The position numbers were made by a program, and so were the translations under genes. From an uncultured bacterium (GTDB lineage: Bacteria > Muiribacteriota > Ozemobacteria > Ozemobacterales > Ozemobacteraceae), in assembly GCA_900317935.1 (NCBI GenBank), contig ONIU01000004.1, positions 2,139 through 66,138 on the forward strand: DNA of 64,000 bases. Reading direction: 5' to 3'. The notes beneath the pieces are model-generated. The model saw nothing but the letters and a program-made list of their open reading frames with translations. It was not told where the DNA came from and searched no databases. Of the stretch, positions 8,016 to 60,949 are shown piece after piece (positions within the stretch are counted from its first letter, which is position 1; each line of letters begins with the position of its first letter).

Positions 8016-9029
8016 ATGAAAGATGATGTTTTATTATCTGTAAAAAATCTTAAAACATATTTCAAGACAGAAGCTGGAATAGCAAAGTCTGTTGATGGTG
8101 TTGATTTCGATGTTTATCCAGGTGAAGTATTAGGTATCGTAGGTGAATCAGGCTCAGGGAAGTCTGTTACTTCTTTGTCTATAATGCAGTTAATTCCTAA
8201 TCCTCCTGGTGAAATCGTTGATGGCGATATTATATTCGAAGGACAAAACCTTCTTACTAGCTATAGGAAGAAAGACTATGATGCTATTCGAAAGATTCGT
8301 GGAAATAAGATTTCAATGATTTTCCAGGAACCAATGACTAGCTTAAATCCAGTATTTACTATTGGTGAACAAGTTGCTGAATCCTTGAGACTTCATCAAC
8401 ATATGAATAACAGACAAGCATTAGATGCTGCTGCAAATATGCTTGACCTAGTTGGTATTCCTTCTCCTCGTGAACGTCTTAAGGATTATCCGCATCAGTT
8501 CTCAGGTGGTATGAGACAGCGCGTTATGATTGCAATGGCTTTGGCCTGTAATCCATCTCTTCTCATTGCTGACGAACCAACTACTGCTCTTGACGTTACA
8601 ATTCAAGCTCAGATTCTTGAATTAATGCTAGATGTAAAAGCAAAAACTGCTAATGCCGCAATAATGCTTATTACACATGATATGGCTGTTATCGCAGAAA
8701 CATGTCAGCGTGTTGTTGTTATGTATTGTGGCAAAGTTCAGGAAATTGCTGATATTAAGACTATTTTCAACTCGCCTCAGCATCCTTATACTCAAGGATT
8801 GCTTGCTTCTCTTCCAAAGCCTGGTCAAAAAGTCAGAAGATTAAATACCATAGAAGGTATGGTTCCTTCGCTTTTTGCTTTACCAAAAGGATGTAGCTTC
8901 TGCACAAGATGTAAGCAGAAAACAAAAGAATGTGATGAAATTCCTCCTGAAATGGTAGAGGTCGAACCAGGTCATTTTGTAAGATGCCATCTTGCAAAAG
9001 CTAAGAAAAAAATCTCGCTGGAAAAATAA
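8016..9029 (+). CDS. ABC transporter ATP-binding protein (OppD-like)
   Basis: Walker A GESGSGKS, signature FSGGMRQR, Walker [14 protein letters not shown]-terminal oligopeptide-type Cys region. AAGGAG RBS. Confidence 0.93.
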
Positions 9030-9040
9030 GGAAGAGTAAA

Positions 9041-10141
9041 ATGTACGATAAAAATAATCCATCTAAGTTATTATTAGAAGTAAAAGACCTTAAGATGTAT
9101 TTCCCTGTATTAGGCGGGGTTTTCAAAAAGAAAATAGCGGACGTAAAAGCTGTTGACGGTGTAAGCTTTGATTTGCATGAAGGTGAAACTCTTGGGCTGG
9201 TAGGGGAATCTGGATGCGGAAAGTCTACAACTGGCAAATGTCTGATTAACCTGAATAAGGCTACTGGTGGGCAAATTCTATTTCACTCCAATCTTACTGG
9301 TGAAATACCTGTTGTAGCTGTTAAAAATAAAGGTCATCGCATAAAAGTTCCTCCTTTTACAATTCCAACAGAATTGACTGTTGATATTGCTCAATTGAAT
9401 AATGATCAGATGAGACCTTTCAGATCTGAAATCCAGATGATTTTCCAGGATCCATATGCATCTCTTAACCCTCGTATGACTGTTAGTGAAATCATTATGG
9501 AACCATTGACTATTCATGCTGCAAATCTTTCAAAGAAAGAAATGTCTGATAAAGTTGCGTGGTTAATGGAAAAAGTTGGGCTTTCTGCAGAACAGGCCAA
9601 TCGTTATCCTCATGAATTCTCTGGTGGCCAACGTCAAAGAATTGGTATAGCTCGTGCCTTAGCTACTAATCCAAGATTGGTTATCGCCGACGAACCAGTT
9701 TCTGCTCTCGACGTTTCAATTCAGGCTCAGGTTATTAACTTGATGCAGGATTTACAGGAAGAATTCGGCTTAACTTATATATTTATTGCTCACGACTTGG
9801 CTGTTGTTGAACATATTTCTGACAGAATTGCAGTTATGTATCTTGGTAATATGGTTGAAATTGCTGAAACAGAAGAATTGTTCAAGAATCCAAAGCACCC
9901 ATATACTAGGGCTTTGCTTTCTGCTATTCCTCAGCCAGACCCGAATATCAAGAAAGAAAAGCGTATTATGCTTGAAGGCGATGTTCCAACTCCACTGAAT
10001 AAACCTTCTGGTTGTGGCTTCAGAACTAGATGTCCAATAGCTAGAGAAGAATGTGCTAAAAACATTCCGGTAATGCACGAAATATCACCTGGTCATCTTT
10101 GTGCTTGTCCTTACCATAACGAGTATAAAGTTAAAAGGTAG
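9041..10141 (+). CDS. ABC transporter ATP-binding protein (OppF-like, with extra segment)
   Basis: Walker [18 protein letters not shown], Walker [13 protein letters not shown]. Confidence 0.93.
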
Positions 10142-10156
10142 AGCAAATTAAATTAC

Positions 10157-10193
10157 AAAAAAGCTAGATTGTTTACAATCTAGCTTTTTTTTT
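10157..10193 (+). terminator. intrinsic terminator of the ABC operon
   Basis: Stem AAGCTAGATTG (10161-10171) / CAATCTAGCTT (10176-10186) followed by a T-run. Confidence 0.8.
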
Positions 10194-10314
10194 ATGTAAT
10201 CCTAAGCTTTACTCCATCTAATAATTCTCATCTCTCATCTTTTCTCTTCCCTAATCTTATGATATACTGAAATATCTATTAAATCTCTAATCCTAAGCTT
10301 AAAGGATAATAAAA

Positions 10315-11127
10315 ATGCTAATCGTAAACAATAAAAAGCTTCAGACTCCGGCTCTACTTGGTATGGTTCATGTAAGAGCTTTACCAGGAACTCCGTTCTG
10401 TGTTGATACATTGGATAAAGTTGTAAAAATAGCAGTTGATGAAGCATTAGCTTATAAAAAAGCCGGATTTTCCGGAATCCTCTTAGAAAACATGCATGAC
10501 AGACCCTATTTGAAATGTCATGTAGGCCCTGAAATAACTGCTGCTATGACAAGAGTAGCCTGTGCCGTCAGAGAAGCTGTTGGTAAGGATTATCCTATAG
10601 GAATACAGATTCTTGCCGGTGCTAATGTTGAAGCATTATCTGTAGCTTATGTTGCAAATCTTGATTTTATCAGAGCAGAAGGCTGCGTTTTCGGTCATGT
10701 TGCTGATGAAGGTTGGATAGAAGCCTGTGCTGGCAACTTGCTCAGAGAAAGAGCTAGGATAGGTGCAAAGAATATTGCTATTTGGACAGACGTTCAGAAA
10801 AAACATTCTGCTCACGCTCCTACTGCAGATTTGCCTCTTGAAGACTGGGTTCACGGTGCTGAATTCTTTGGTATAGACGGTGTTATCGTAACTGGAACTG
10901 CAACAGGTGTTGCTGCAAAAGCTACAGAAGTAGAAAGAGCCAAAAAAGCCAGTCCGCTTCCAGTTGTAGTAGGTTCTGGAATAACAGCTAAGAACTGTAA
11001 GGATTATGCTGTTGCAGATGCCTGGATAGTAGGTTCCTGGGTTAAAAAAGATGGTTACTGGGAAAATCCCTTAGACCCTAAACGTCTTAAAGAACTGGTT
11101 GCTGCCCACAAGAAAATATTAAGATAA
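10315..11127 (+). CDS. BtpA/SgcQ-family TIM-barrel protein
   Basis: N-terminal LLGMVHVRALPGTPF and overall length (270 aa) match the BtpA family pattern. Confidence 0.75.
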   Translation: MLIVNNKKLQTPALLGMVHVRALPGTPFCVDTLDKVVKIAVDEALAYKKAGFSGILLENMHDRPYLKCHVGPEITAAMTRVACAVREAVGKDYPIGIQILAGANVEALSVAYVANLDFIRAEGCVFGHVADEGWIEACAGNLLRERARIGAKNIAIWTDVQKKHSAHAPTADLPLEDWVHGAEFFGIDGVIVTGTATGVAAKATEVERAKKASPLPVVVGSGITAKNCKDYAVADAWIVGSWVKKDGYWENPLDPKRLKELVAAHKKILR

Positions 11128-11173
11128 AAGACTAATAATTGAGATATAAGATTTAAGACTATATTCTATACTC

Positions 11174-11237
11174 TCTCTTATAACTTATCTCTTACATCTT
11201 ATATCTTGTATCTTACATCTTACATCTTACATCTGAA
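11174..11237 (+). repeat. heptamer array (about 9 units, TCTTAYA-type) abutting a start codon
   Basis: TCTCTTA TAACTTA TCTCTTA CATCTTA TATCTTG TATCTTA CATCTTA CATCTTA CATCTGA, then AAAATC-ATG(11243). Confidence 0.9.
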
Positions 11238-11242
11238 AAATC

Positions 11243-11668
11243 ATGGAAATCACAGAACAAGTAAAAACAATTAAAAAGAATCTGAAACTAATTGGCAAAC
11301 TTGAAAAAGAATTCGGTTTAAAGCCAAATAGCGACATAGATGACCCTTTGCTTTATTGTGGAGTTGCTCAATCAAATGTTATTAAAGAACTAACTCCACT
11401 AGTTGAAGAATATTTCGGTTCAGCATATAAACCTGCTGGTGAAACAGCTTTTTTTAAAAATTTGTTTGATAAATTTTTAAAAGCAGTAGGCGGTGCACGT
11501 AAAGATCAAACTCTCTTCAAAAAAGATATTGATGAAGGTGTAATTTTATATTGCGCTTTCTGGCCTTGGGGAACACAACCAGTTAAAACTTCAGTCAGAA
11601 TTGGCTTGGTTTGTTATAGCGAAGAATTAGAGGCTGAATACACCAAGTATTTGAAGGGATACTTCTAG
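11243..11668 (+). CDS. hypothetical protein
   Basis: 141-aa ORF with coding-like composition. No family recognised and no SD. Confidence 0.55.
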   Translation: MEITEQVKTIKKNLKLIGKLEKEFGLKPNSDIDDPLLYCGVAQSNVIKELTPLVEEYFGSAYKPAGETAFFKNLFDKFLKAVGGARKDQTLFKKDIDEGVILYCAFWPWGTQPVKTSVRIGLVCYSEELEAEYTKYLKGYF

Positions 11669-12074
11669 CCAAGCGTAGCTCCCCCACGAACGGTGGGTGA
11701 GCTGTCACGAAGTGACTGAGGGGGCTGATTGCGTAGCAATCAGTGGCGTGGTGAGTGGTTGGGGGTAGGTGGTGAGTGAGCGGACAGTAGACGCGAGACC
11801 TCTATTCTCCGCACAAGGCTCGTTCCCTCAAAGATTCTCCGAAGGTAGTAATTATAAGAGACCGCGGAGGAGAATAAGGTTGAGCAAGCAACTGTCCGTC
11901 TTTTAAAGAATTGAGAGCTTAGAGCCAACACTTCCAACTCTTCTCACCCTTTCAACAATTCTAACAACTCTAACAATTCCAACAATTCTCACCGATTGCG
12001 ACAGCAATCGTCTCACCTCAAATTGAATAATACAATACTTAGATTATATTAAATATAACTTTTCGACTAATAAA
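11669..12074. repeat. G+C-rich intergenic hairpin/word mosaic A
   Basis: Hairpins at 11677-11703, 11704-11716 (GTCAC-GAA-GTGAC), 11725-11743 (CTGATTGC-GTA-GCAATCAG) and 11993-12010. GT-rich tract 11743-11783. Repeat R1 copy at 11781-11898. Nonamer array YAACAAYTC x4 at 11953-11988. Confidence 0.9.
11781..11898 (+). repeat. R1 structured repeat, copy 1 (~120 nt, candidate RNA element)
   Basis: Aligns end to end with 22906-23032 and 60660-60775. Closing stem CGGACAGT/ACTGTCCG. Inner helix ACCT-C-TATT-CTCCGC / GCGGAG-GAG-AATA-AGGT. Confidence 0.85.
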
Positions 12075-12353
12075 ATGACCGACGAAGAAATAATAGAAAT
12101 CCCCATAAACGGTGTGTTAGATCTGCATACCTTTCAACCTAAAGAAGTTAAACCTTTGGTGATTGATTATCTTGAAGAATGTGTAAAACGTAATATTAAG
12201 CACGTTAGAATCATTCACGGCAAAGGAATTGGCAACCTCAGAAGAACTGTCGAAGCATTGCTTCCTAAACTGGATGTTGTTGAATCCTGGGCGCCAGCAG
12301 GTGCTGATGCTGGTCACTGGGGAGCTACTCTTGTAACCCTGAAGATAAAATAG
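12075..12353 (+). CDS. Smr-domain protein
   Basis: VLDLHTF...VRIIHGKGIGNLRRTVEALL matches the Smr (MutS2 C-terminal) domain pattern LDLHG...IIHGKG. Confidence 0.8.
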   Translation: MTDEEIIEIPINGVLDLHTFQPKEVKPLVIDYLEECVKRNIKHVRIIHGKGIGNLRRTVEALLPKLDVVESWAPAGADAGHWGATLVTLKIK

Positions 12354-12357
12354 GCAT

Positions 12358-12391
12358 AAAAAAAGCCCTGCTTTAGAGCAGGGCTTTTTTT
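12358..12391. terminator. bidirectional intrinsic terminator
   Basis: Stem AGCCCTGC (12363-12370) / GCAGGGCT (12377-12384) with an A-run before and a T-run after. Lies between convergent genes. Confidence 0.8.
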
Positions 12392-12402
12392 ATGCTTGAA
12401 TC

Positions 12403-13011
12403 TTAGTTGCCTCTGGTGTTCTTTACTTTATCATCAGTAAAAGTAATACCGAAGAGACGATTTTCTTCAACTGGCTGTAAACTGTAGAATACAACATTAA
12501 CAGTCTTTACTGCATTAGAGATTTTTTCATGTCTTGCAAAATCGCGTTTGCGGTTTTCTGCTAAGTCTTTCCACATAGCATTAGAATCTTTGTCTTTTAC
12601 GGCTTTAACTGCATCGCGAATATTGTTGTATTTGCGAGTGAAGATTGTATTTTCTTCTTCGCCACGCTTATCAGTGCTTACATAGTTAAATTTTACAACG
12701 ATGTTCTTTAAATAATCGCCTTCATAAGAACCAGCAGAAAGGAAAGAAGAAATCTTGCTCTGTTCGCCGGCAAAAAATACTGTTGCGGTAACTTTCTTAA
12801 AGAAAACTGCGCCAGATTTTACAGTATGTGTATAAAGAACTTCGCCATTTTTCCAAGTTTTAACTAATCTTTCGATTGTTTCAACTTCACGAGCGATTTG
12901 GTCCTGGTCACGACCAATAACATTTATATAACCATATACAGCAGCCTGTGCAGCAGAAACTACACCAAGCATAAGTGCCATTACTACGAACAATTTAACA
13001 AATTTATTCAT
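12403..13011 (-). CDS. hypothetical exported protein
   Basis: Start moved to ATG 13011 (MNKFVKLFVVMALMLGVVSAAQA, signal peptide), which is preceded by GGAGG. Confidence 0.6.
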   Translation of the reverse strand: MNKFVKLFVVMALMLGVVSAAQAAVYGYINVIGRDQDQIAREVETIERLVKTWKNGEVLYTHTVKSGAVFFKKVTATVFFAGEQSKISSFLSAGSYEGDYLKNIVVKFNYVSTDKRGEEENTIFTRKYNNIRDAVKAVKDKDSNAMWKDLAENRKRDFARHEKISNAVKTVNVVFYSLQPVEENRLFGITFTDDKVKNTRGN

Positions 13012-13158
13012 TCCTTTACCTCCAAAGATGATTAGAGTAATTATACACATATATAGCTTAACCCGCAAGGTACTATTCTATAAAAACCGTGATATTGTTA
13101 ATTGCAAAAGTAAATCGAATTTAAATTGCGTTTGCCATATAAAAATAAATAAAAGGGG

Positions 13159-18701: not shown

Positions 18702-20182
18702 TGAAAACATTGTTCTTTGAATGCAAAATGGGTGCCGCTGGAGATATGCTGGCAGCAGCCTTATTAGAACTTCATCCAGAACCAGAAAAGATAATTAAAC
18801 AATTAAACAAAATTGGTCTGCCAAATGTAGAGTTTAAATTAGAACCTTCTATTAAGTGCGGAATATCTGGGAAACATTTTTCTGTCAGAGTTGGCGGGCA
18901 CGAGGAACAAAGCTGTGATATTCATCATGACCACGAAAATCATTGCCATCATCACGACCATTGTAGTGAACATAGCCATGAATTTTGCTCAGAAAAAGAA
19001 GAACATCATCATGACCATGATGAGCACTGTCACCATCATGAGCATCATCATGAAGATTGCCATGACCACGATGAACACTGCCATCATCATGACCATTGCC
19101 ATGAACATAATCATGAATTCTGTCATGATCATCATGAACATGAACACCACCATGAGCATTGTGAAGCCCATCATCATGACCATGAACACCATCATGAGCA
19201 TTGCGAAGCCCATCATCATGACCATGAACACCACCATGAACATCATGGCTTACATGATATAGAACATCTTGTTATGGACCATCTGAATATCTCTGAAGAA
19301 GTTAAAAATGATGTCATTGAGGTCTATAAAATCATAGCAGATGCAGAAAGCAAAGTTCACGGAGTTCCAGTAAATCAGATTCATTTTCATGAAGTAGGTA
19401 GTATTGATGCTGTTGCTGATATTACTGCTGTCTGTTTGTTGATAAACGAATTGAAGCCGGACAAAATACTTGCTTCTCCAATTCATGTCGGTAGTGGACA
19501 AGTAAGATGTGCACATGGAATATTGCCTGTTCCTGCTCCAGCAACCGCTTTGATTTTGAAAGATATACCCATTTATGGTGGCGCAGTAGATGGAGAACTC
19601 TGTACACCCACTGGTGCAGCACTTCTCAAGCACTTTGTTTCTTCTTTTGGAAACCAGCCTGTTATGCGTGTGGAAAAAATAGGTTATGGTATGGGTAAAA
19701 AAGATTTTGTTCAAGCTAATTGTGTTAGAGCAATGCTCGGCGAAACAGAAGAAAATGTTGATGAAGTTGTCGAACTTTACTGCAACCTTGATGACATGTC
19801 TCCTGAAGAAATCGGCTTTGCAATGGAAAGACTCTTTGAAGCTGGAGCATTTGAAGTCTATACTACTCCTATTGGTATGAAGAAAAATAGACCAGGAATC
19901 CTACTTAGCTGTATGTGTAAACTAGAACTGCGTCAACAGATGCTGAATGTAATTTTCAAGCATACCTCTACAATTGGAGTTAGAGAACATATCTCCAATA
20001 GATATATTCTCAATAGAAGCTTTAATACTATCTCTGCTGATGGTCAGAATATTAGAGTTAAAAACGTAACCGGTTATGGTGTCGATAGAGAAAAGGTTGA
20101 GTATGAAGATTTGGCTTCTTATGCCATAAAGAATAATATTTCTTTAAGAGAAGCAAGAAGAAGAATCATGAACTCTAAATAA
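18701..20182 (+). CDS. larC: nickel insertion protein LarC (DUF111 family) with greatly expanded His/Cys-rich insert
   Basis: MKTLFFECKMGAAGDMLAAALLEL, HFHEVGSIDAVADI, and C-terminal TTPIGMKKNRPG...STIGVRE. The start overlaps the larB stop (TAATG). Confidence 0.88.
   Translation: MKTLFFECKMGAAGDMLAAALLELHPEPEKIIKQLNKIGLPNVEFKLEPSIKCGISGKHFSVRVGGHEEQSCDIHHDHENHCHHHDHCSEHSHEFCSEKEEHHHDHDEHCHHHEHHHEDCHDHDEHCHHHDHCHEHNHEFCHDHHEHEHHHEHCEAHHHDHEHHHEHCEAHHHDHEHHHEHHGLHDIEHLVMDHLNISEEVKNDVIEVYKIIADAESKVHGVPVNQIHFHEVGSIDAVADITAVCLLINELKPDKILASPIHVGSGQVRCAHGILPVPAPATALILKDIPIYGGAVDGELCTPTGAALLKHFVSSFGNQPVMRVEKIGYGMGKKDFVQANCVRAMLGETEENVDEVVELYCNLDDMSPEEIGFAMERLFEAGAFEVYTTPIGMKKNRPGILLSCMCKLELRQQMLNVIFKHTSTIGVREHISNRYILNRSFNTISADGQNIRVKNVTGYGVDREKVEYEDLASYAIKNNISLREARRRIMNSK
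19142..19246 (+). repeat. 42-nt in-frame tandem repeat (2.5 units) inside larC
   Basis: Units at 19142-19183 and 19184-19225 differ at 3 synonymous sites and encode EHHHEHCEAHHHDH twice. Partial third unit at 19226-19246. Confidence 0.9.
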
Positions 20183-21826: not shown

Positions 21827-22896
21827 CCAGGTTATTTTATGAAAACCTTTATATAGACAGAGATGTGGTTGATGACCCTCTCGTTTTAAGTATTAAAAGC
21901 AAAATAGATTATAAAAATGAAGCTATAGTTGATGGGGAACTTCACCCTGGTAACGGTTTGCTGCTAGCAAAGAACAAAGGTAAGTTTATAAAAGTCTGCC
22001 CATGCAGATGTGAGAAAACCTGGTGCGGTTACTGGGTAGTAGAGTGGGGGTTCGGCTGCCCATTCGAATGTGAGTATTGCATTGTTCAGAATTATCAGCG
22101 TGCTGGTGATGCTACACTTTATGTGAATTTTGATGACTGCCGCCGTGAAATCGAAGATTTGCGCAAGAATGTCAAAGGTGCTATAAGACTAGGAACAGGT
22201 CATTTTGGCGACCCTATGGGTTTTGAAGAAATATATCCGCTTAATCAGGCAATAATTGAATGGACAAAAGATATGCCTGACTTTACTGTTGAAGTAAAAA
22301 CTAAGAGTAATTATATAGCTCCGATTTTGAAGCTTCATAATGCTAAAAATCTGACAATGGCTTACTCTCTTAATACTATTGAATCTGCTAATGCATTAGA
22401 ACATAGAACCGCTTCTATAGAAGAAAGGCTGGCGGCCGCTAGAGATGCTGCAAAGGCTTCTAACTGTAATCTGGCTTTTCATTTCGAGCCCATAATTCCT
22501 GTAAAGGACTGGAAAAGAAAATATATTGAAGTATTTGAACTGATGAACAAGTATCTGGAAGGGTTAGAAATCAGTTGGATATCACTGGGGACTTTCCGGT
22601 TCCCAAAAGGTTTTCAGGAATATGTTGAACTTTATCATCCCAATACGGGCATTTTTGCAGAAGAATTCTACCCCTGTTCTGATGGAAAGATAAGGTATTT
22701 CAGGCCACTTCGGGAAGAATTATATACTTTTATAAGAAATGAAGCTCTTAAAAGGTATCCGGATGTTGTTGTATATATGTGTATGGAATCTCCCGATGTC
22801 TGGGAAAGAATTGTCGGCCATAAAATGAAACCATCAGAACTTTATTATCAGATGTGCCACCGCATTTCTGATATGTCTAAGCTTCGCTTAGGTTAG
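21823..22896 (+). CDS. radical SAM protein, spore-photoproduct-lyase (SplB/COG1533)-like
   Basis: GFGCPFECEYCIVQNY gives a CX3CX2C cluster in the GC...C.YC..Q context typical of SPL-family enzymes. GTG start overlaps the upstream stop (GTGA). Confidence 0.7.
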   Translation: MTRLFYENLYIDRDVVDDPLVLSIKSKIDYKNEAIVDGELHPGNGLLLAKNKGKFIKVCPCRCEKTWCGYWVVEWGFGCPFECEYCIVQNYQRAGDATLYVNFDDCRREIEDLRKNVKGAIRLGTGHFGDPMGFEEIYPLNQAIIEWTKDMPDFTVEVKTKSNYIAPILKLHNAKNLTMAYSLNTIESANALEHRTASIEERLAAARDAAKASNCNLAFHFEPIIPVKDWKRKYIEVFELMNKYLEGLEISWISLGTFRFPKGFQEYVELYHPNTGIFAEEFYPCSDGKIRYFRPLREELYTFIRNEALKRYPDVVVYMCMESPDVWERIVGHKMKPSELYYQMCHRISDMSKLRLG

Positions 22897-22905
22897 TAAA
22901 TTCAT

Positions 22906-23032
22906 AATAATGACAGTAGACGCGAAACCTTCTATTCTCCGCACAAGGCTCGTTCCCTCAAAGATTATCCGAAGGTAAAAATCTACAGAGACCGCGGAGG
23001 AGAATAAGGTTGAGCAAGCGACTGTCATTATT
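22906..23032 (+). repeat. R1 structured repeat, copy 2
   Basis: Same core as 11781-11898. Closing stem extended to 12 bp: AATAATGACAGT (22906-22917) / ACTGTCATTATT (23021-23032). Confidence 0.85.
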
Positions 23033-23188
23033 TTTAATATTATTCGCCTAGCCATTTACAGAATAAGCAATGACAAATCTGAAATACTGATTAATAACTA
23101 AAAAAGTTTGCATTTGCCCTGTAGATGTGATTGGTGTTATTTTAAGCTAAAAGCCTTAAGCTTCAAGCTTACATACAAGGTAAAAGAA

Positions 23189-26381: not shown

Positions 26382-26999
26382 ATGTCTGATACTTCAGACA
26401 AAAAGAATAAGACAGTTAAGAAAAAAGAGAGCGGCTTCGTTGCTTTATTAAAAGGAATGGGCTGCTTTTTTGTCTGCCTGTTCTTTTTTATTGCTGTAGT
26501 AACAGGAGTAGGGTTCTATTACTTTGTTCCGATCATTAGAGCTGTTGCGGCTGAAGAAAAATTGCCAGATTTTGAAGGACCAACCGAGCATGATTTCTGG
26601 AGTTTGCAGGAAAAAACTATTGCGAACGGTGAAGAATCCCAGAATACAAATAAACTTAGCTTAACAAGCGGAGAATATAATGCTATGCTTGCATCTATAC
26701 AGATTCCGCCTGTTTCAGGTTTCTGTTTGAATAGAGTTCGCCACAGTTATAAGAACAAAGAATTGCGTTATTATCTGATCGGCTCTGGCTACACATTTAG
26801 AAAACTTGTAATAAGTTTTGTCGTCTTTAAAGATGCTACAAATAGCTATCCTTCAGAAATCAGGGTAAATAGCTGGAAAGTTCCAGGTGATACTTTTAAA
26901 GAAAAGTATTTAAGGAGCATTATTACAGATGTTGCAGATGCTGATAAAACAGGGCTCTTAAAGAAAATTATTTCCGGTTCCCTCAACCCATTTGAATAA
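26382..26999 (+). CDS. hypothetical membrane-anchored protein
   Basis: 205 aa with one N-terminal TM. Its last codons contribute one arm of a hairpin with the R1 fragment at 27003. Confidence 0.55.
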   Translation: MSDTSDKKNKTVKKKESGFVALLKGMGCFFVCLFFFIAVVTGVGFYYFVPIIRAVAAEEKLPDFEGPTEHDFWSLQEKTIANGEESQNTNKLSLTSGEYNAMLASIQIPPVSGFCLNRVRHSYKNKELRYYLIGSGYTFRKLVISFVVFKDATNSYPSEIRVNSWKVPGDTFKEKYLRSIITDVADADKTGLLKKIISGSLNPFE

Positions 27000-27002
27000 A
27001 CA

Positions 27003-27022
27003 TTGAGGGAACGAGCCTTGTG
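27003..27022 (-). repeat. inverted 20-nt fragment of the R1 core
   Basis: TTGAGGGAACGAGCCTTGTG is the exact reverse complement of the R1 core CACAAGGCTCGTTCCCTCAA. Confidence 0.85.
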
Positions 27023-27064
27023 GGTAGTAATCCAGGTTAGTAGAAATATTTAAGAAGGTTAAAA

Positions 27065-27886: not shown

Positions 27887-28388
27887 GGAAAGAGAAATTT
27901 GGCAAGCTTCACTTGGCGTGATAAGTGGTGAGTGGTTAGAGCAACAGAGCGAGAGGGGTTAAGGAATTAAGGGATTAAGGAATTTAGGGATTGAGAGATT
28001 GAAAACTCTTCCAACTCTTCTCTAACTTAACATACAGGGCAAACGCATTAAAAAATTGTATTATTAGTAAACTATCATTGAATTTGGTTATTTATCCCCT
28101 TTTTCAAAGGGGAACGGCTGCTTTAACAGCCAAGGGGATTTTCGAGAGCTTGAATAAGCAATACAAAGTTAAGTCCGAAGACTGTTATGTTATTAAAATC
28201 CCCCTTAATCCCCCTTTAACAAAGGGGGTAAATATAACATCTGACTGAGGGGGTCTTTATTTATCCCCTTTTTGCAGGGGATCTTATTCTATCAAACAAG
28301 AACTAATAAAAAGTATTTGAAATGTTGTTAGATAATATATTAAAAATAAAATATTTGATTTATAATAAATAATGAAAGTGAGGATATT
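27887..28388. repeat. G+C-rich intergenic hairpin/word mosaic B
   Basis: GT-rich module at 27901-27945. Octamer array 27959-28006 (TTAAGGAA TTAAGGGA TTAAGGAA TTTAGGGA TTGAGAGA TTGAAAAC). CTCTTCCAACTCTTC module. Hairpins at 28096-28112, 28116-28131, 28210-28228 and 28263-28282. Confidence 0.9.
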
Positions 28389-28619
28389 ATGTCTACTTTG
28401 CGTCAAGATGCAGTAAACCTTATTAATAAAATTCCTGAAAAAAAGCTTTTTTATTTAATACAGATTATTAAAGGTATAGATGGTTTGTTTAATAATGATG
28501 AATTAGATTCTGAAGGAATAGAGAAATCTTTTGCTTATATTGAAAGTATGAGAAGAGAAATGCCTGAAATTAACTACGATAAAGAATTAGAAGATTATAG
28601 AGAAAATAGATATTTATAA
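28389..28619 (+). CDS. putative antitoxin of a VapBC-like pair
   Basis: 76-aa acidic protein, GTGAGGA RBS. Its stop overlaps the start of a PIN-domain ORF (TAATG). Confidence 0.5.
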   Translation: MSTLRQDAVNLINKIPEKKLFYLIQIIKGIDGLFNNDELDSEGIEKSFAYIESMRREMPEINYDKELEDYRENRYL

Positions 28620-28825
28620 TGAAAGTACTGATAGATACAAATATATTACTAGATTATTTATTAAAGCGTGAACCTTATAGACTTGATTCAGAAATCATAG
28701 TTAAAGCCTGTAAAGATAATAAAATCTGTGGCTATATGGCTGCTCATAGTGTAATTAATATTTTTTATATATTAAGAAAAGTTTATAATACAAAAGAAAG
28801 AAAATCTATTTTAAAAGCTTTTTGA
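28619..28825 (+). pseudogene. truncated PIN-domain (VapC-like) toxin gene
   Basis: MKVLIDTNILLDYLLKREPY... is a PIN N-terminus, but the ORF stops at 68 aa (about half the normal length) exactly where hairpin mosaic C begins. Confidence 0.6.
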
Positions 28826-29389
28826 GGGCAGATCGTTTTCTCTGAAGATGCGCCCCCTGTTTAGCTGGGGCTGCCGCCACGGATGGCGGCGTGCAAGCGA
28901 GCCACAGGATGGCCAGCAAGTCGTAGGGGGACTTCTAAAGCCTCTCCTTGAGGAGAGGTGGCACGTAGTGCCGGAGTGGTGAATGAATTAGAGTAAATTA
29001 TAGTTCCTTGGAATACTAATACGCTATCGCTAAATATGATTTTACTCTGGTTCGGTCACCCTTTCGATTGCTTACGCAATCACTTCCCCTCAAGGGGAAG
29101 CTTTAGACCTCCACCACCCACCATTCACCACTAATCACTCTGCAATGCAAAGCATTGCAGAAGAGGGGGTCTTTAAAGTAGTGTTCGCTGCGCTGTAGGA
29201 CACTTCGTTTTTGAACACTTCTAACTCTTCCAACTCTTCTAACCCTTACAACAACTATCACGGGCAGCGTTAGCTGCCGTCTCACAAGTTGCGTCAGCAA
29301 CAGGCCCACAGAGGCTTTAGCCTCGTCTCACCACCATTCATCCACCACTTACCACCAACCACCTACCACGCCAAGCTTCGCTTGGCTTC
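28826..29389. repeat. G+C-rich intergenic hairpin mosaic C
   Basis: At least ten short hairpins: 28873-28890, 28941-28958, 28960-28972, 29066-29081, 29083-29100, 29140-29160, 29263-29278, 29288-29301, 29311-29324, 29370-29386. Also a C-rich tract at 29327-29369. Confidence 0.9.
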
Positions 29390-44632: not shown

Positions 44633-46154
44633 AGCAAAAATACTTGTAATTGACGATGAACATAGCGTCAGATGGGCTTTTGAAAAAGCTTTACAGAAAG
44701 CTAACTATGAAGTTGCATTGGCAGATAATGGATTAAAAGGTTTGAATCTTTATTATGAATTTAAGCCTGATATTACCTTTGTCGATATAAGAATGCCTGA
44801 AATGGACGGCCTTCAGATATTGGAAAAAGTCATGGCTGATGACCCCAAGGCTTTAATAATAGTTATGACAGCTTATTCTGATATGGAAACCACTGTTAAT
44901 GCTATGAAACTCGGGGCTTATGATTTCCTTACAAAACCTTTTAATATTGATGAATGTTTATCTCTGATTTCAAGAGGTTTAACTGCTAGAAATTCTTCTA
45001 AAATAGCTGAGTTAGGTGTTCAAGCACCGAAATCTAGTGCCTTAAAAGGTAATAGTGCTGCAATGCAGGAAGTCTATAAATTAATAGGTAAGGTTTCGGG
45101 CGAAGATGTTAGCGTTTTGGTCTGTGGGGAATCGGGCTGCGGCAAAGAATTAGTTGCTCAGGCTATTCATTTTAATTCAAGACGTTCTGCTAAACCTTTC
45201 TGGCCGATAAACTGCACTGCAATAAGTGAAAGTTTAATGGAATCAGAATTTTTCGGCTATGAAAAAGGCGCTTTTACTGGTGCTGCGACCTCTAAGCAAG
45301 GTATGTTTGAATTGGCACAAGGCGGAACTATATTCCTCGACGAAATAGGTGATATGAACCTGGAAATGCAGGCCAAACTTCTAAGAGTTTTGGAAGAAAG
45401 AGAAATTGTTAGAGTTGGCGGTAATAAAAGAATTAGCGTAGATGTAAGAGTTATTGCTGCCACAAATAAAGATTTGAGAAAACTAATCGTTGAAGGAAAA
45501 TTCCGTGAAGACCTTTATCACAGAATAAAAGTTATTGAAATCAAACTTCCGCCTCTCAGAGAAAGAGTGGAAGATATTCCTCTTCTAGCAAGATATTTTT
45601 GTTCTATATTAGCTGCTCAGAGAAGAGGGGTTCCTAAAAGTATGTCTGATGAAGCTATTGAACTTCTTTGTGCCTATTCCTGGCCTGGAAATGTCAGAGA
45701 ATTGCGTAATGCTATAGAACAGTCATATACTCTTAGCAGAGACCAGTTGATACTTCCAGAACATTTACCAATAGAAATAACTAAGGGCGTAACTCAACCT
45801 TCAACAGCTAAGAGTGCTTCTACTTCAAATATTCAAGTTGTTATTCCTGAAGAAAAAGTCTCTGCAGAAACCCCTGATAAAACACTAACTGCTACCTCTT
45901 CAGATAAAAATGATACTTTGTATGCTTCAGCTTCAAATGAAACCCCTGAAGATTTAGCTGTAAAAATGTTGATAAAGAGGCTTCTTGATAGAGCGCCTGA
46001 TGGAGATGCATACAGCTATGTTTTAGGTGTTTTTGAAAAGGAATTATTAGCTCAGAGTTTGGAAAAACATAAGAGAAATCAGGTTCAAAGCGCTTCTCAG
46101 CTAGGTATAACAAGAAATACGCTTAGAACAAAGATGGAAAAGTATCATTTGTGA
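44622..46154 (+). CDS. sigma-54-dependent response regulator (NtrC family)
   Basis: REC domain (VIDDEHSV..., FVDIRMPEMDG). AAA+ domain with GESGCGKE and ESEFFGYEKGAFTGA. C-terminal Fis-type HTH ASQLGITRNTLRTKMEKY. Overlaps the upstream gene by 11 nt. Confidence 0.92.
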   Translation: MSDKAKILVIDDEHSVRWAFEKALQKANYEVALADNGLKGLNLYYEFKPDITFVDIRMPEMDGLQILEKVMADDPKALIIVMTAYSDMETTVNAMKLGAYDFLTKPFNIDECLSLISRGLTARNSSKIAELGVQAPKSSALKGNSAAMQEVYKLIGKVSGEDVSVLVCGESGCGKELVAQAIHFNSRRSAKPFWPINCTAISESLMESEFFGYEKGAFTGAATSKQGMFELAQGGTIFLDEIGDMNLEMQAKLLRVLEEREIVRVGGNKRISVDVRVIAATNKDLRKLIVEGKFREDLYHRIKVIEIKLPPLRERVEDIPLLARYFCSILAAQRRGVPKSMSDEAIELLCAYSWPGNVRELRNAIEQSYTLSRDQLILPEHLPIEITKGVTQPSTAKSASTSNIQVVIPEEKVSAETPDKTLTATSSDKNDTLYASASNETPEDLAVKMLIKRLLDRAPDGDAYSYVLGVFEKELLAQSLEKHKRNQVQSASQLGITRNTLRTKMEKYHL

Positions 46155-46231
46155 GATGTAAGACTTAAGTTATAAGTTACAAGATGTAAGATATAAGACT
46201 TTATTCTTATGTCTTAATCTTAAATCTCGTA
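46155..46231. repeat. heptamer words in inverted orientation forming a hairpin
   Basis: GATGTAA GACTTAA GTTATAA GTTACAA GATGTAA GATATAA (46155-46196), then TTCTTAT GTCTTAA TCTTAAA TCTCGTA. Stem AAGATATAAGA (46188-46198) / TCTTATGTCTT (46205-46215). Confidence 0.85.
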
Positions 46232-46514: not shown

Positions 46515-46853
46515 TCTTTTGTCGTTTACACATAAAATATAAGCAAATTTAGTGTTACGCTACGCTGTGGGACATTTCATTGTGGGACGGCGACTTGCGT
46601 CGCCCGTGGGATATTGTTTGGAATAGTTCGAATAGTTCAACGTTCAAAGAGTTCTAATTGTTAAAATCGTTAGAATTGTTGGAAGAGTGAAAAGGGTGAG
46701 AAGGGTTGTAAGTGTTCAAGTTTCAAATGGTTCTATAAGCCTACACATTTGTCATAAAAAGTATAGCGTATGGGCTTTAGCCCTGAAAGCTATACGTTTA
46801 TGACAATGGGTAGACTACAAATAACCGATACCCTACAACCGCCAAACGATATC
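46515..46853. repeat. intergenic mosaic D
   Basis: Module R2 at 46557-46615 with hairpin GGCGAC-TTGC-GTCGCC (46589-46604). Module R3 at 46621-46654. Inverted CTCTTCCAAC module at 46676-46725. Long palindrome at 46749-46806. Confidence 0.9.
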
Positions 46854-52687: not shown

Positions 52688-52820
52688 ATCTTAAATCTTA
52701 TATCTTATATCTTAAATCTTAAATCTTATATCTTATATCTTATATCTTAAATCTTATATCTTATATCTTAAATCTTAAATCTTAAATCTTATATCTTATA
52801 TCTTATATCTTATATCTAAA
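52688..52820 (+). repeat. tandem heptamer array, 18 perfect units ATCTTAA/ATCTTAT plus terminal ATCTAAA
   Basis: Counted directly. Unit order is A T T A A T T T A T T A A A T T T T. The array ends 3 nt before the dtd ATG. Confidence 0.95.
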
Positions 52821-60488: not shown

Positions 60489-60949
60489 CGAATTATCAAT
60501 TTATTGTTAACACTCACCACTTATCTCTCATCAGACAATTTGCTTACCCGTATTCTTTTGGGTTAACGTTAATAGCCAACAATATTCGAGTGCAACGCTT
60601 CGCTGTTATACACTTCATTGTGGGACGATCGCTTTCGCAATCTGTGGTAATTGTCAGCAGGACAGAGACGCAAAACCTTCTGTTCTCCGTACAAGGCTCG
60701 TTTCCTCAATGATTATTCGAAGGCAGAAATTTACAGAGATCGCGGAGGAGAATAAGATTGAGCAAGCGAAAGTCCGCCATATTTTTTGTAAAAAAATGGG
60801 TTAAAACTATTAGAATCGTTCGAATAGTTCAAGGTTCAAATAGTTCGATAAGATCAAAGATGGAGACATAAGATTTCTTGTAACTTGAATCTTGTAACTT
60901 GTAACTTGTCAATGTTTTTATTAAAAATAAATAATATTTTTTTTATCTC
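60489..60949. repeat. intergenic mosaic E
   Basis: Inverted GT-rich word at 60513-60540. Module R2 at 60595-60653. R1 copy 3 at 60660-60775. Module R3 at 60813-60847. Heptamers NNCTTGN x5 at 60875-60909. A/T-rich UP-like tract. Confidence 0.9.
60660..60775 (+). repeat. R1 structured repeat, copy 3 (most diverged)
   Basis: Aligns with copies 1 and 2. The inner helix is kept via G-U-compatible changes. The closing stem is reduced to GGAC/GTCC. Confidence 0.8.

Follow-up and report, generated by a model that had tools for sequence, protein, structure and literature searches.

Hairpin-forming repeats in the intergenic DNA of uncultured rumen Riflebacteria, a probable family of small mobile DNA of the REP/REPIN and ERIC kind

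Small interspersed repeats of the REP/REPIN, ERIC, BOX and Correia types are known chiefly from Proteobacteria, Firmicutes and cyanobacteria in culture, and the ERIC unit is said to have been given a length of 127 bp by Hulton et al. in 1991. REPINs consist of two conserved inverted regions separated by a variable spacer, lie outside genes and form hairpins in which compensatory changes are common (PMC3116915). ERIC sequences are co-transcribed with adjoining genes and can alter mRNA decay, and Correia elements form a hairpin in mRNA and have been reported to invert at a locus (PMC10969869). Here we analyze R1, a repeat of about 120 nt found in three copies in a 64,000-nt stretch of contig ONIU01000004.1 from an uncultured bacterium (the whole stretch is referred to as the window), for which a preliminary description had offered two candidates, a miniature mobile element and, read from the + strand, a novel structured RNA.

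R1 is probably a non-coding family of interspersed hairpin repeats, a small non-autonomous DNA, mobile or selfish, of the REP/REPIN, MITE (miniature inverted-repeat transposable element) and ERIC kind, which has multiplied between the genes of a lineage of uncultured rumen Riflebacteria. We place it beside the REP/REPIN- and ERIC/BOX-type repeats, whose features are those of R1 (PMC3116915, PMC3049150, PMC10969869), because the family is lineage-restricted, high in copy number, extragenic, blind to orientation, young and without target-site duplication, and because it combines a compensated closing stem, invariant inverted arms and a variable spacer with mosaic surroundings.

Distribution, anatomy and covariation of the R1 family

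The three copies reported in the window were found at the places claimed for them (Table 1) and align over their full length with a mean column identity of 86%. A 27-nt block of the core occurs at exactly three window sites when at most one mismatch is allowed, compared with none in 100 dinucleotide-preserving shuffles, and nhmmer with a profile of 126 copies recovered three full copies, all on the + strand, plus a 39-nt fragment on the - strand. An exact 20-mer of the core was searched against 185,579 species-representative genomes and matched 38 stretches of that collection, with real copies only in two Candidatus Riflebacteria metagenome-assembled genomes (MAGs), from goat abomasum and rumen; the other three matches (Saccharibacteria, Bacteroidetes and Aerococcus) were bare 21-23-nt chance matches. 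The stretches taken from the two MAGs hold 34 full copies. A second search used an independent 19-mer from the other half of the element against metagenome contigs, its copy totals being lower bounds, and at least 156 full copies (82-100% identity to the consensus) at no fewer than 126 flank-distinct loci were collected from 1.08 Mb of MAG stretches and ruminant-type metagenome contigs. The window itself comes from a relative of the MAGs, locus L018 being syntenic with window positions 8718-11222 at 87-89% identity. No R1-like sequence was present in plasmid, phage or viral-contig searches. Rfam returned no match in the whole window at gathering thresholds and only chance-level matches around copy 1 at E ≤ 10; the preliminary description had likewise matched R1 to no RNA family. 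Most copies derive from short-read metagenome assemblies, in which repeats can be collapsed or chimerised, and many of them lie at contig ends.

The anatomy of R1 was derived from an alignment (A3) of 126 copies, one per flank-distinct locus. The unit of ~114-122 nt reads (A)GCG-GACAG(T/C)...(A/G)CTGTC-CGC(T), with terminal inverted repeats CGGACAGT / ACTGTCCG of 8-10 bp in most copies. The inverted arms ACCT(C)TATTCTCC..GC and GC..GGAGAATA.AGGT are essentially invariant and the internal loops are asymmetric and conserved; the same invariance is seen in copy sets that had not been picked on these parts (block B among the metagenome copies, block A among those of the MAGs). No reading frame stays consistently open across the copies when indels are counted. 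A coding module, or an element like the Rickettsia palindromic elements (RPE), was accordingly ruled out, the copies being intergenic and lacking such a frame.

Covariation is limited to the closing helix, where changes on both sides occur in 8 of 10 pairs, and the 61 cells concerned exceed the 19.5 ± 3.7 of shuffled alignments (0 of 500 shuffles as high), a significance that is overstated since the sequences are related by descent. At least eight distinct compensated variants of the stem exist, for example GCAAACA/TGTTTGC, CGAACAGC/GCTGTTCG, GGGC/GCCC, GCA/TGC, TCG/CGA and AAT/ATT, showing that the closing stem is maintained through independent compensatory changes, as it also is in REPIN-type mobile hairpins (PMC3116915). 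The inner helices never vary in A3 and are uninformative either way, and the covariation term of RNAalifold for the whole fold is only -0.43 kcal/mol. Two additional sets of pairings, tandem G·A with C27-G119/G26-C120 and CUCAA/UUGAG joining loop A to the 3' junction, were rejected, as the change TTGAGC>TCGAAC breaks them.

Strand, orientation and turnover

Genes around the copies were called as simple longest open reading frames (ORFs) of at least 130 aa, a crude procedure, and by these calls R1 lies inside an ORF at 0 of 126 loci; all copies are intergenic. Between co-directional genes, 26 copies are in sense and 19 in antisense orientation (p = 0.37), while 17 loci lie between convergent and 23 between divergent genes, showing that the orientation of R1 relative to genes is random.

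These counts bear directly on the proposal that the + strand of R1 is read as a structured non-coding RNA, be it a small-RNA gene or a cis-acting mRNA element, with a functional multi-stem fold and paralogous copies, a proposal that we regard as very unlikely. Copies 1 and 2 do fold far below shuffled sequences on the + strand (-40.6 kcal/mol, z -3.3, and -41.6 kcal/mol, z -4.4, respectively), the closing stem covaries and the internal loops are highly conserved. In addition, 119 of 122 distinct copies have G·U, A-U or G-C at pair 30/116 and one has A·C (G·U 58, A-U 37, G-C 24, A·C 1), as a single-stranded fold of the + strand predicts, which hints at such a fold for this pair. However, the - strand folds equally well as RNA (-45.0 kcal/mol for copy 1, -44.5 kcal/mol for copy 2), and so do both strands as single-stranded DNA. 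When every proposed pair is counted, G·U cells number 109 and A·C cells 76, but pair 30/116 alone supplies 58 of the G·U; with it and the doubtful pair 9/136 left out, 44 G·U stand against 54 A·C. Pair 20/127 leans to the - strand (U-A 73, C-G 21, C·A 16, U·G 7). With the skew of one pair opposed by that of another and the remaining wobbles at 44 against 54, the family as a whole therefore has no consistent strand.

Further points against an RNA are the 23 of 126 loci between divergent genes, the inner helices without covariation, the lack of an Rfam match, the confinement of R1 to two species-representative genomes, and differences in occupancy and orientation between genomes whose flanking genes share 80-96% identity. 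Stems, loops and spacer carry private mutations at an even density, and no conserved promoter-like sequence was seen upstream of R1, where the flanks differ by subfamily. The + strand RNA of the preliminary description is thus not supported, copies occurring in both orientations, which that description itself had named as refuting it, and neither folds nor wobble counts favouring that strand. Its argument from copy 3, that substitutions there keep pairing only as G·U on the + strand, stands for three of the four pair-changing substitutions (TGTT, CCGT and also GATC) and fails for the fourth, AAGGT>AAGAT, which gives C·A on the + strand and G·U on the - strand. The outer stem of copy 3 is broken (GGACAG / AAAGTCC), and its RNA fold is no better than shuffles (z -0.55 on the + strand, +0.52 on the - strand).

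A host function might instead be primary and spread secondary, R1 serving as a transcript-stabilising or terminating stem-loop or as a DNA site for a nucleoid or recombination protein; this, too, we consider unlikely. In its favor, about 55% of copies have TTTT (as CGCTTTT) straight after the strong stem and so look like an intrinsic terminator; copies 1 and 2 closely follow genes and are kept by all near-identical strains; conservation at syntenic loci is higher for R1 than for unique flanks; and an influence on mRNA processing is known for ERIC and Correia elements (PMC10969869). Against it, copies are not enriched in sense orientation downstream of genes whether or not they have the T-tract, the presence of which is unrelated to orientation (29:28 against 23:23), and many lie between divergent genes, where a terminator is unneeded. 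The window has an ordinary terminator where L018 has R1, and ordinary terminators elsewhere; moreover, the family is lineage-restricted with fast turnover, and its higher conservation may reflect gene conversion or collapsed assembly. A general role as terminator was rejected on the missing sense preference with or without T-tract, the 23 divergent loci and a 95-nt 'loop' that is atypical of terminators.

Comparison of syntenic loci revealed that occupancy changes between related genomes. R1 is present in L030 and absent from the syntenic place in L134 and L142, present in L092 and absent in L002 and L072, and, conversely, present in L072 and absent from the syntenic place in L092. L017 and L057 carry it in opposite orientations and with different adjoining modules, between flanking genes of ~96% identity. 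Where L018 (1424-1720) has a GCCAAGC..GCTTGGC hairpin and an inverted R1, the window (10140-10281) has an ordinary terminator hairpin AAAAAAGCTAGATTGT..ACAATCTAGCTTTTTTTTT, which shows wholesale replacement of intergenic DNA. Private mutations, defined as alleles seen in at most two copies, amount to ~0.2-0.9% per site in every region, and the large regional differences within R1 consist of shared, subfamily-level polymorphism; this is the pattern expected of young copies from few evolving source lineages and is unlike that of old paralogous genes under site-specific selection. These data show that the copies are young and that turnover between related genomes is fast.

The ends of R1 were inspected for target-site duplication. 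The dinucleotides around GACAG..CTGTC are CG/CG in most copies and otherwise AT/AT, CA/TG, TG/CA, AG/CG or AT/CG. If R1 were a classical MITE, derived by deletion from a DDE-type insertion sequence (IS) whose transposase binds the terminal inverted repeats on double-stranded DNA and duplicates the target on insertion, the common CG..CG and AT..AT flanks could be read as 2-bp duplications, and the size of ~115-122 nt, the terminal inverted repeats and the multi-copy, intergenic occurrence with occupancy differing between related genomes would also fit. CG and AT are, however, self-complementary and so uninformative on direct repeats, and the informative flanks are inverted complements (CA/TG in L013 and L071, TG/CA in L106) or unrelated (AG/CG, AT/CG), with no informative direct repeat among them. 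Single-base compensation across the ends is better explained by a hairpin than by two protein-binding sites that act independently. Conservation is lower at the ends than in the interior, whereas terminal inverted repeats usually show the reverse, and the 1.08 Mb of R1 flanks contains neither an ORF enclosed by R1 ends nor a multi-copy ORF. Classical MITE membership fails on target-site duplication, and we hold this origin to be quite unlikely. The miniature mobile element first proposed is supported as a mobile or selfish repeat, with young intergenic copies in one lineage whose occupancy and orientation differ; it is not a plain MITE, since neither target-site duplication nor, in these flanks, a cognate transposase was found.

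Several observations nevertheless weigh against mobile DNA as the nature of R1, the skew at pair 30/116 being one. In syntenic pairs of 80-96% identity the whole intergenic content differs and no clean empty site came to light, so that movement is inferred from occupancy differences; nor do the usual left and right flanks abut without R1, as pre-insertion targets would, anywhere in the 1.08 Mb. Near-identical public strains, found by exact-protein look-ups beside copies 1 and 2, all keep both copies (the same look-up for the ORF adjoining copy 3 gave no record). At syntenic loci R1 and its adjoining modules are 96-100% alike while unique flanks are ~72-90% alike, an excess that could be due to selection, gene conversion or collapsed short-read assembly; with the latter two both possible, we discarded this conservation as a test of selection. 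The ends of the mobile unit are fuzzy, subfamilies having conserved flanks of 20-55 nt of their own. As to an enzyme, phmmer at E ≤ 10 found no IS200/Y1-like ORF among 2,554 ORFs of at least 70 aa in the 1.08 Mb, a search made with single sequences of limited sensitivity and covering only DNA at most a few kb away from R1 copies (an IS200 TnpA query, which itself matched PF01797 at 131 bits, was used together with a RAYT query that did not match PF01797). No multi-copy ORF family occurs at non-syntenic places in the 1.08 Mb either, and the genes enclosed by pairs of R1 copies are ordinary ones of the host.

As small mobile DNA, R1 copies would be made from few active lineages by an enzyme acting in trans, which would recognise the invariant inner arms on a single-stranded hairpin and for which an HUH/RAYT-like protein is our best guess; the outer stem would need only to pair. 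Recombination between modules would then shuffle the flanks of R1. A transcript containing R1 in either orientation would gain a stable stem-loop and may be affected in its mRNA 3' end or decay, as a side effect and not as the reason for the family's existence.

Window copies and companion modules

The positions of the window copies, the parts of R1 and the classes of its flanks are listed in Table 1.

Table 1. R1 copies and companion modules of the window, parts of the R1 unit and flank classes
Feature	Position or size	Strand	Sequence or content
R1 copy 1	11779-11900 (core 11783-11896)	+	122-nt unit AGCG-GACAGT...ACTGTC-CGTC
R1 copy 2	22908-23030 (core 22912-23026)	+	D subfamily; closing stem AATAATGACAGT/ACTGTCATTATT
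R1 copy 3	60657-60778 (core 60661-60774)	+	C subfamily; left flank ..CTGTGGTAATTGTCAGC; outer stem degenerate
R1 fragment	26989-27027	-	nhmmer E 4.8e-07; carries R1 segment CACAAGGCTCGTTCCCTCAATGTTTATTC
Left modules of copy 1	11667-11778	+	small hairpin ..CTGAGGGGGCTGATTGCGTAGCAATCAG.., then GT-rich run of ~7-nt period GGTGAGTGGTTGGGGGTAGGTGGTGAGTG
Right sequence of copy 1	11901-12023	+	TTTTAAAGAATTGAGAG, AC-rich ~9-nt tandem run, small hairpin GATTGCGACAGCAATC
~80-nt palindrome, sole window copy	46741-46815		
R1 part: closing stem	~10 bp		(G)CGGACAGT / ACTGTCCG(C)
R1 part: 5' junction			AGACGCGAG
R1 part: inner helix			ACCT/AGGT + TATTCTCC/GGAGAATA; bulged C (or TC) left, GGA/TCC right
R1 part: short helix			GGCTC/GAG(A)CC
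R1 part: central spacer	~30 nt		subfamily-specific; 13-15% non-consensus
Flank class A			GCCAAGCnnAGCTTGGC hairpin, GT-rich ~7-nt run, AGCG, R1, CGCTTTTAAAG, GA-rich run
Flank class B			(AGAGCnnn)n run replaces GT-rich run
Flank class C			..CTGTGGGAC..GGTAATTGTCAGCG, R1, CGCTATGTTTTA; includes window copy 3
Flank class D	left flank >=55 nt		left flank ending ..GTTAGTAAATTCATAATAAT, R1, ATTATTTTT; includes window copy 2

The structural details first given for the window copies proved real: the complementary flanks extend the closing stem of copy 1 to 8 bp (CGGACAGT/ACTGTCCG), that of copy 2 (AATAATGACAGT/ACTGTCATTATT) lies inside 18-nt arms (22900-22917 and 23021-23038) that are 89% complementary, and the inner helix ACCT..TATTCTCC / GGAGAATA..AGGT is found in all three copies. 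The gene context was also correctly described, copies 1 and 2 lying downstream of + strand genes and copy 3 upstream of rpoB. Copy 1 is 115 nt 3' of a + strand ORF (141 aa, no Pfam match), with a Smr-domain gene next; copy 2 is ~10-16 nt 3' of a radical-SAM/SPL-like gene, with truA on the other side; and copy 3 occupies a divergent intergenic region, 437 nt upstream of rpoB and 173 nt from the divergent ORF. The left flank of copy 2, GGTTAGTAAATTCATAATAAT (GGTTAGTAAATTC.., 22886-22899), is conserved in D-type units and overlaps the stop codon TAG of the radical-SAM/SPL-like gene (22894-22896), and the D-type unit may have supplied or reshaped the 3' end of this gene. Candidate orthologues of copy 2 (L009, L101, L105 and L138) and of copy 3 (L040, L050 and others) were rejected, as the profile alignment ends 20-60 nt outside the core and the resemblance lies in subfamily flanks instead. 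Between the Smr-domain gene and the convergent ORF 12403-13068, a strong hairpin at 12351-12398 is terminator-like in both directions (19-20 bp, T-runs on both strands); canonical terminators therefore coexist with R1.

R1 is rarely alone, and ~1.9 kb (3%) of the window is repeat common to at least three other loci. The order of the modules left of copy 1 recurs beside R1 elsewhere, L023 and L028 sharing 200-260 nt that include them. The AC-rich run on the right of copy 1 (period 9 at 11925-11988) pairs with the GT-rich run on the left; with the small hairpins facing each other as well, positions 11640-12060 fold into a single ~420-nt hairpin whose apex is R1 (-129.8 kcal/mol, z -3.5). Other repeat families adjoin R1 at fixed spacing, the commonest being a near-perfect palindrome of ~80 nt, GTCTACACATTTGTCATAATAAGTATAGCGTATGGGCTTTAGCCCTGAAAGCTATACGTTTATGACAATGGGTAGAC, with 105 hits in the fetched loci, often ~25 nt 3' of R1. 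Pieces of R1 are also fused to other modules: solo 5' ends run on into AAATTAGAGATAAGAG..., solo 3' halves stand behind a GGATTGCCAC.. module, and in L043 the two R1 ends enclose ~290 nt of other modules. The - strand fragment of Table 1 is part of another small hairpin, GTTCCCTCAA/TTGAGGGAAC (26969-27044, - strand), lying between two + strand genes and having 29 nt in common with the interior of R1; this shared sequence suggests that repeat families may exchange modules.

Two tandem R1 copies ~307 nt apart with near-identical flanks, GATAGGTTAGCG / GATGGGTTAGCG, occur in L095 (4404-4841) and represent a local duplication of the unit with its flanks, similar to the tandem REPIN clusters of Pseudomonas (PMC3116915). 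Intergenic tandem arrays of 7-nt units are present in the window at 11176-11234, 46154-46198, 52688-52817 and 60877-60909 (units TCTTATA, ATCTTAT x18.6, AGATATA and CTTGTAA), and arrays of 9-nt units at 11925-11988 and 29214-29253 (units CCAACACTT and AACTCTTCC). Similar 7-9-nt arrays flank R1 at other loci, with an identical 9-mer array on either side of it in L092; they resemble the heptamer STRR repeats of cyanobacteria. A ~1.3-kb intergenic mosaic at 28060-29387 consists of dispersed modules common to up to 26 other loci and holds a GCCAAGC..GCTTGGC hairpin with a GT-rich run (29343-29386, - strand) and a CCCCCTTTAATAAAGGGGG-type module near 28096-28185. Elsewhere, positions 18922-19253 form a coding-looking tandem repeat with a 42-nt period, rich in CAT/CAC/GAC (ATCATCATGACCATGAACACC...), which may encode a histidine-rich repeat protein on one of the two strands.

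In another reading, R1 and its companions (the ~80-nt palindrome family, several small-hairpin modules and the GT-rich and AC-rich 7-9-nt arrays pairing across R1) would constitute an undescribed bacterial mobile or recombining system, or the invariant inner arms and loops would be a genome-wide functional RNA or protein-binding site. In such a system the apex of a hairpin would take up further hairpin modules, producing nested palindromes of 300-400 nt, by means of an enzyme that is not a recognisable transposase. We consider this quite unlikely.

Comparison with known repeat systems and significance

If R1 is small mobile DNA as we propose, the same kind of repeat thrives, in unusually mosaic form, in Candidatus Riflebacteria, a gut lineage that is uncultured and AT-rich. 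The family causes breaks in short-read assemblies, and several contigs of near-identical strains end at R1; it can be mistaken for structured RNA, and it could be used to mark the lineage in rumen metagenomes. Identification of its mobilising enzyme would extend knowledge of REPIN-like systems beyond the lineages studied.

R1 resembles REPINs in its inverted conserved regions with a spacer, its hairpin in single-stranded DNA or RNA and its compensatory changes, and also in being extragenic, in numbering tens to hundreds per genome, in lacking target-site duplication and in forming mosaic clusters. It differs from them in that phmmer found no RAYT or Y1 transposase beside any R1 copy, in that its arms ACCTCTATTCTCCGC and GCGGAGGAGAATAAGGT have no internal short GC-rich REP palindrome, in its asymmetric and strongly conserved internal loops and unrelated sequence, and in its host, a distant AT-rich (35% GC) uncultured phylum. 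With no RAYT association found and arms without REP palindromes, membership in the REPIN-RAYT system cannot be claimed.

With the ERIC/IRU sequences of Enterobacteriaceae and Vibrionaceae R1 shares an imperfectly palindromic form, near-equal size, intergenic location and a copy number that varies between lineages. ERIC, in contrast, is classed among the MITEs, bearing terminal inverted repeats and a TA duplication, whereas R1 has no duplication, and the sequences and hosts are unrelated. The BOX, RUP and SPRITE repeats of Streptococcus pneumoniae are comparable in that several small, modular families with secondary structure coexist in one genome, are confined to one species group and are judged parasitic and not host-functional. 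BOX is, however, built of boxA, boxB and boxC modules, while the companions of R1 include 7-9-nt tandem arrays, and RUP has an IS630-type partner and a TA duplication, whereas for R1 no partner was found in its flanks. The Correia elements of Neisseria are likewise small, intergenic and hairpin-forming, with inverted ends and more than 100 copies, but they possess 26-bp terminal inverted repeats, a TA duplication, an IHF site and promoters, none of which was seen in R1. RPE, finally, lie in frame inside genes, whereas R1 was never found within an ORF of at least 130 aa. As it stands, R1 is a new family of a familiar kind, an ordinary phenomenon in a new host and not a new mechanism.

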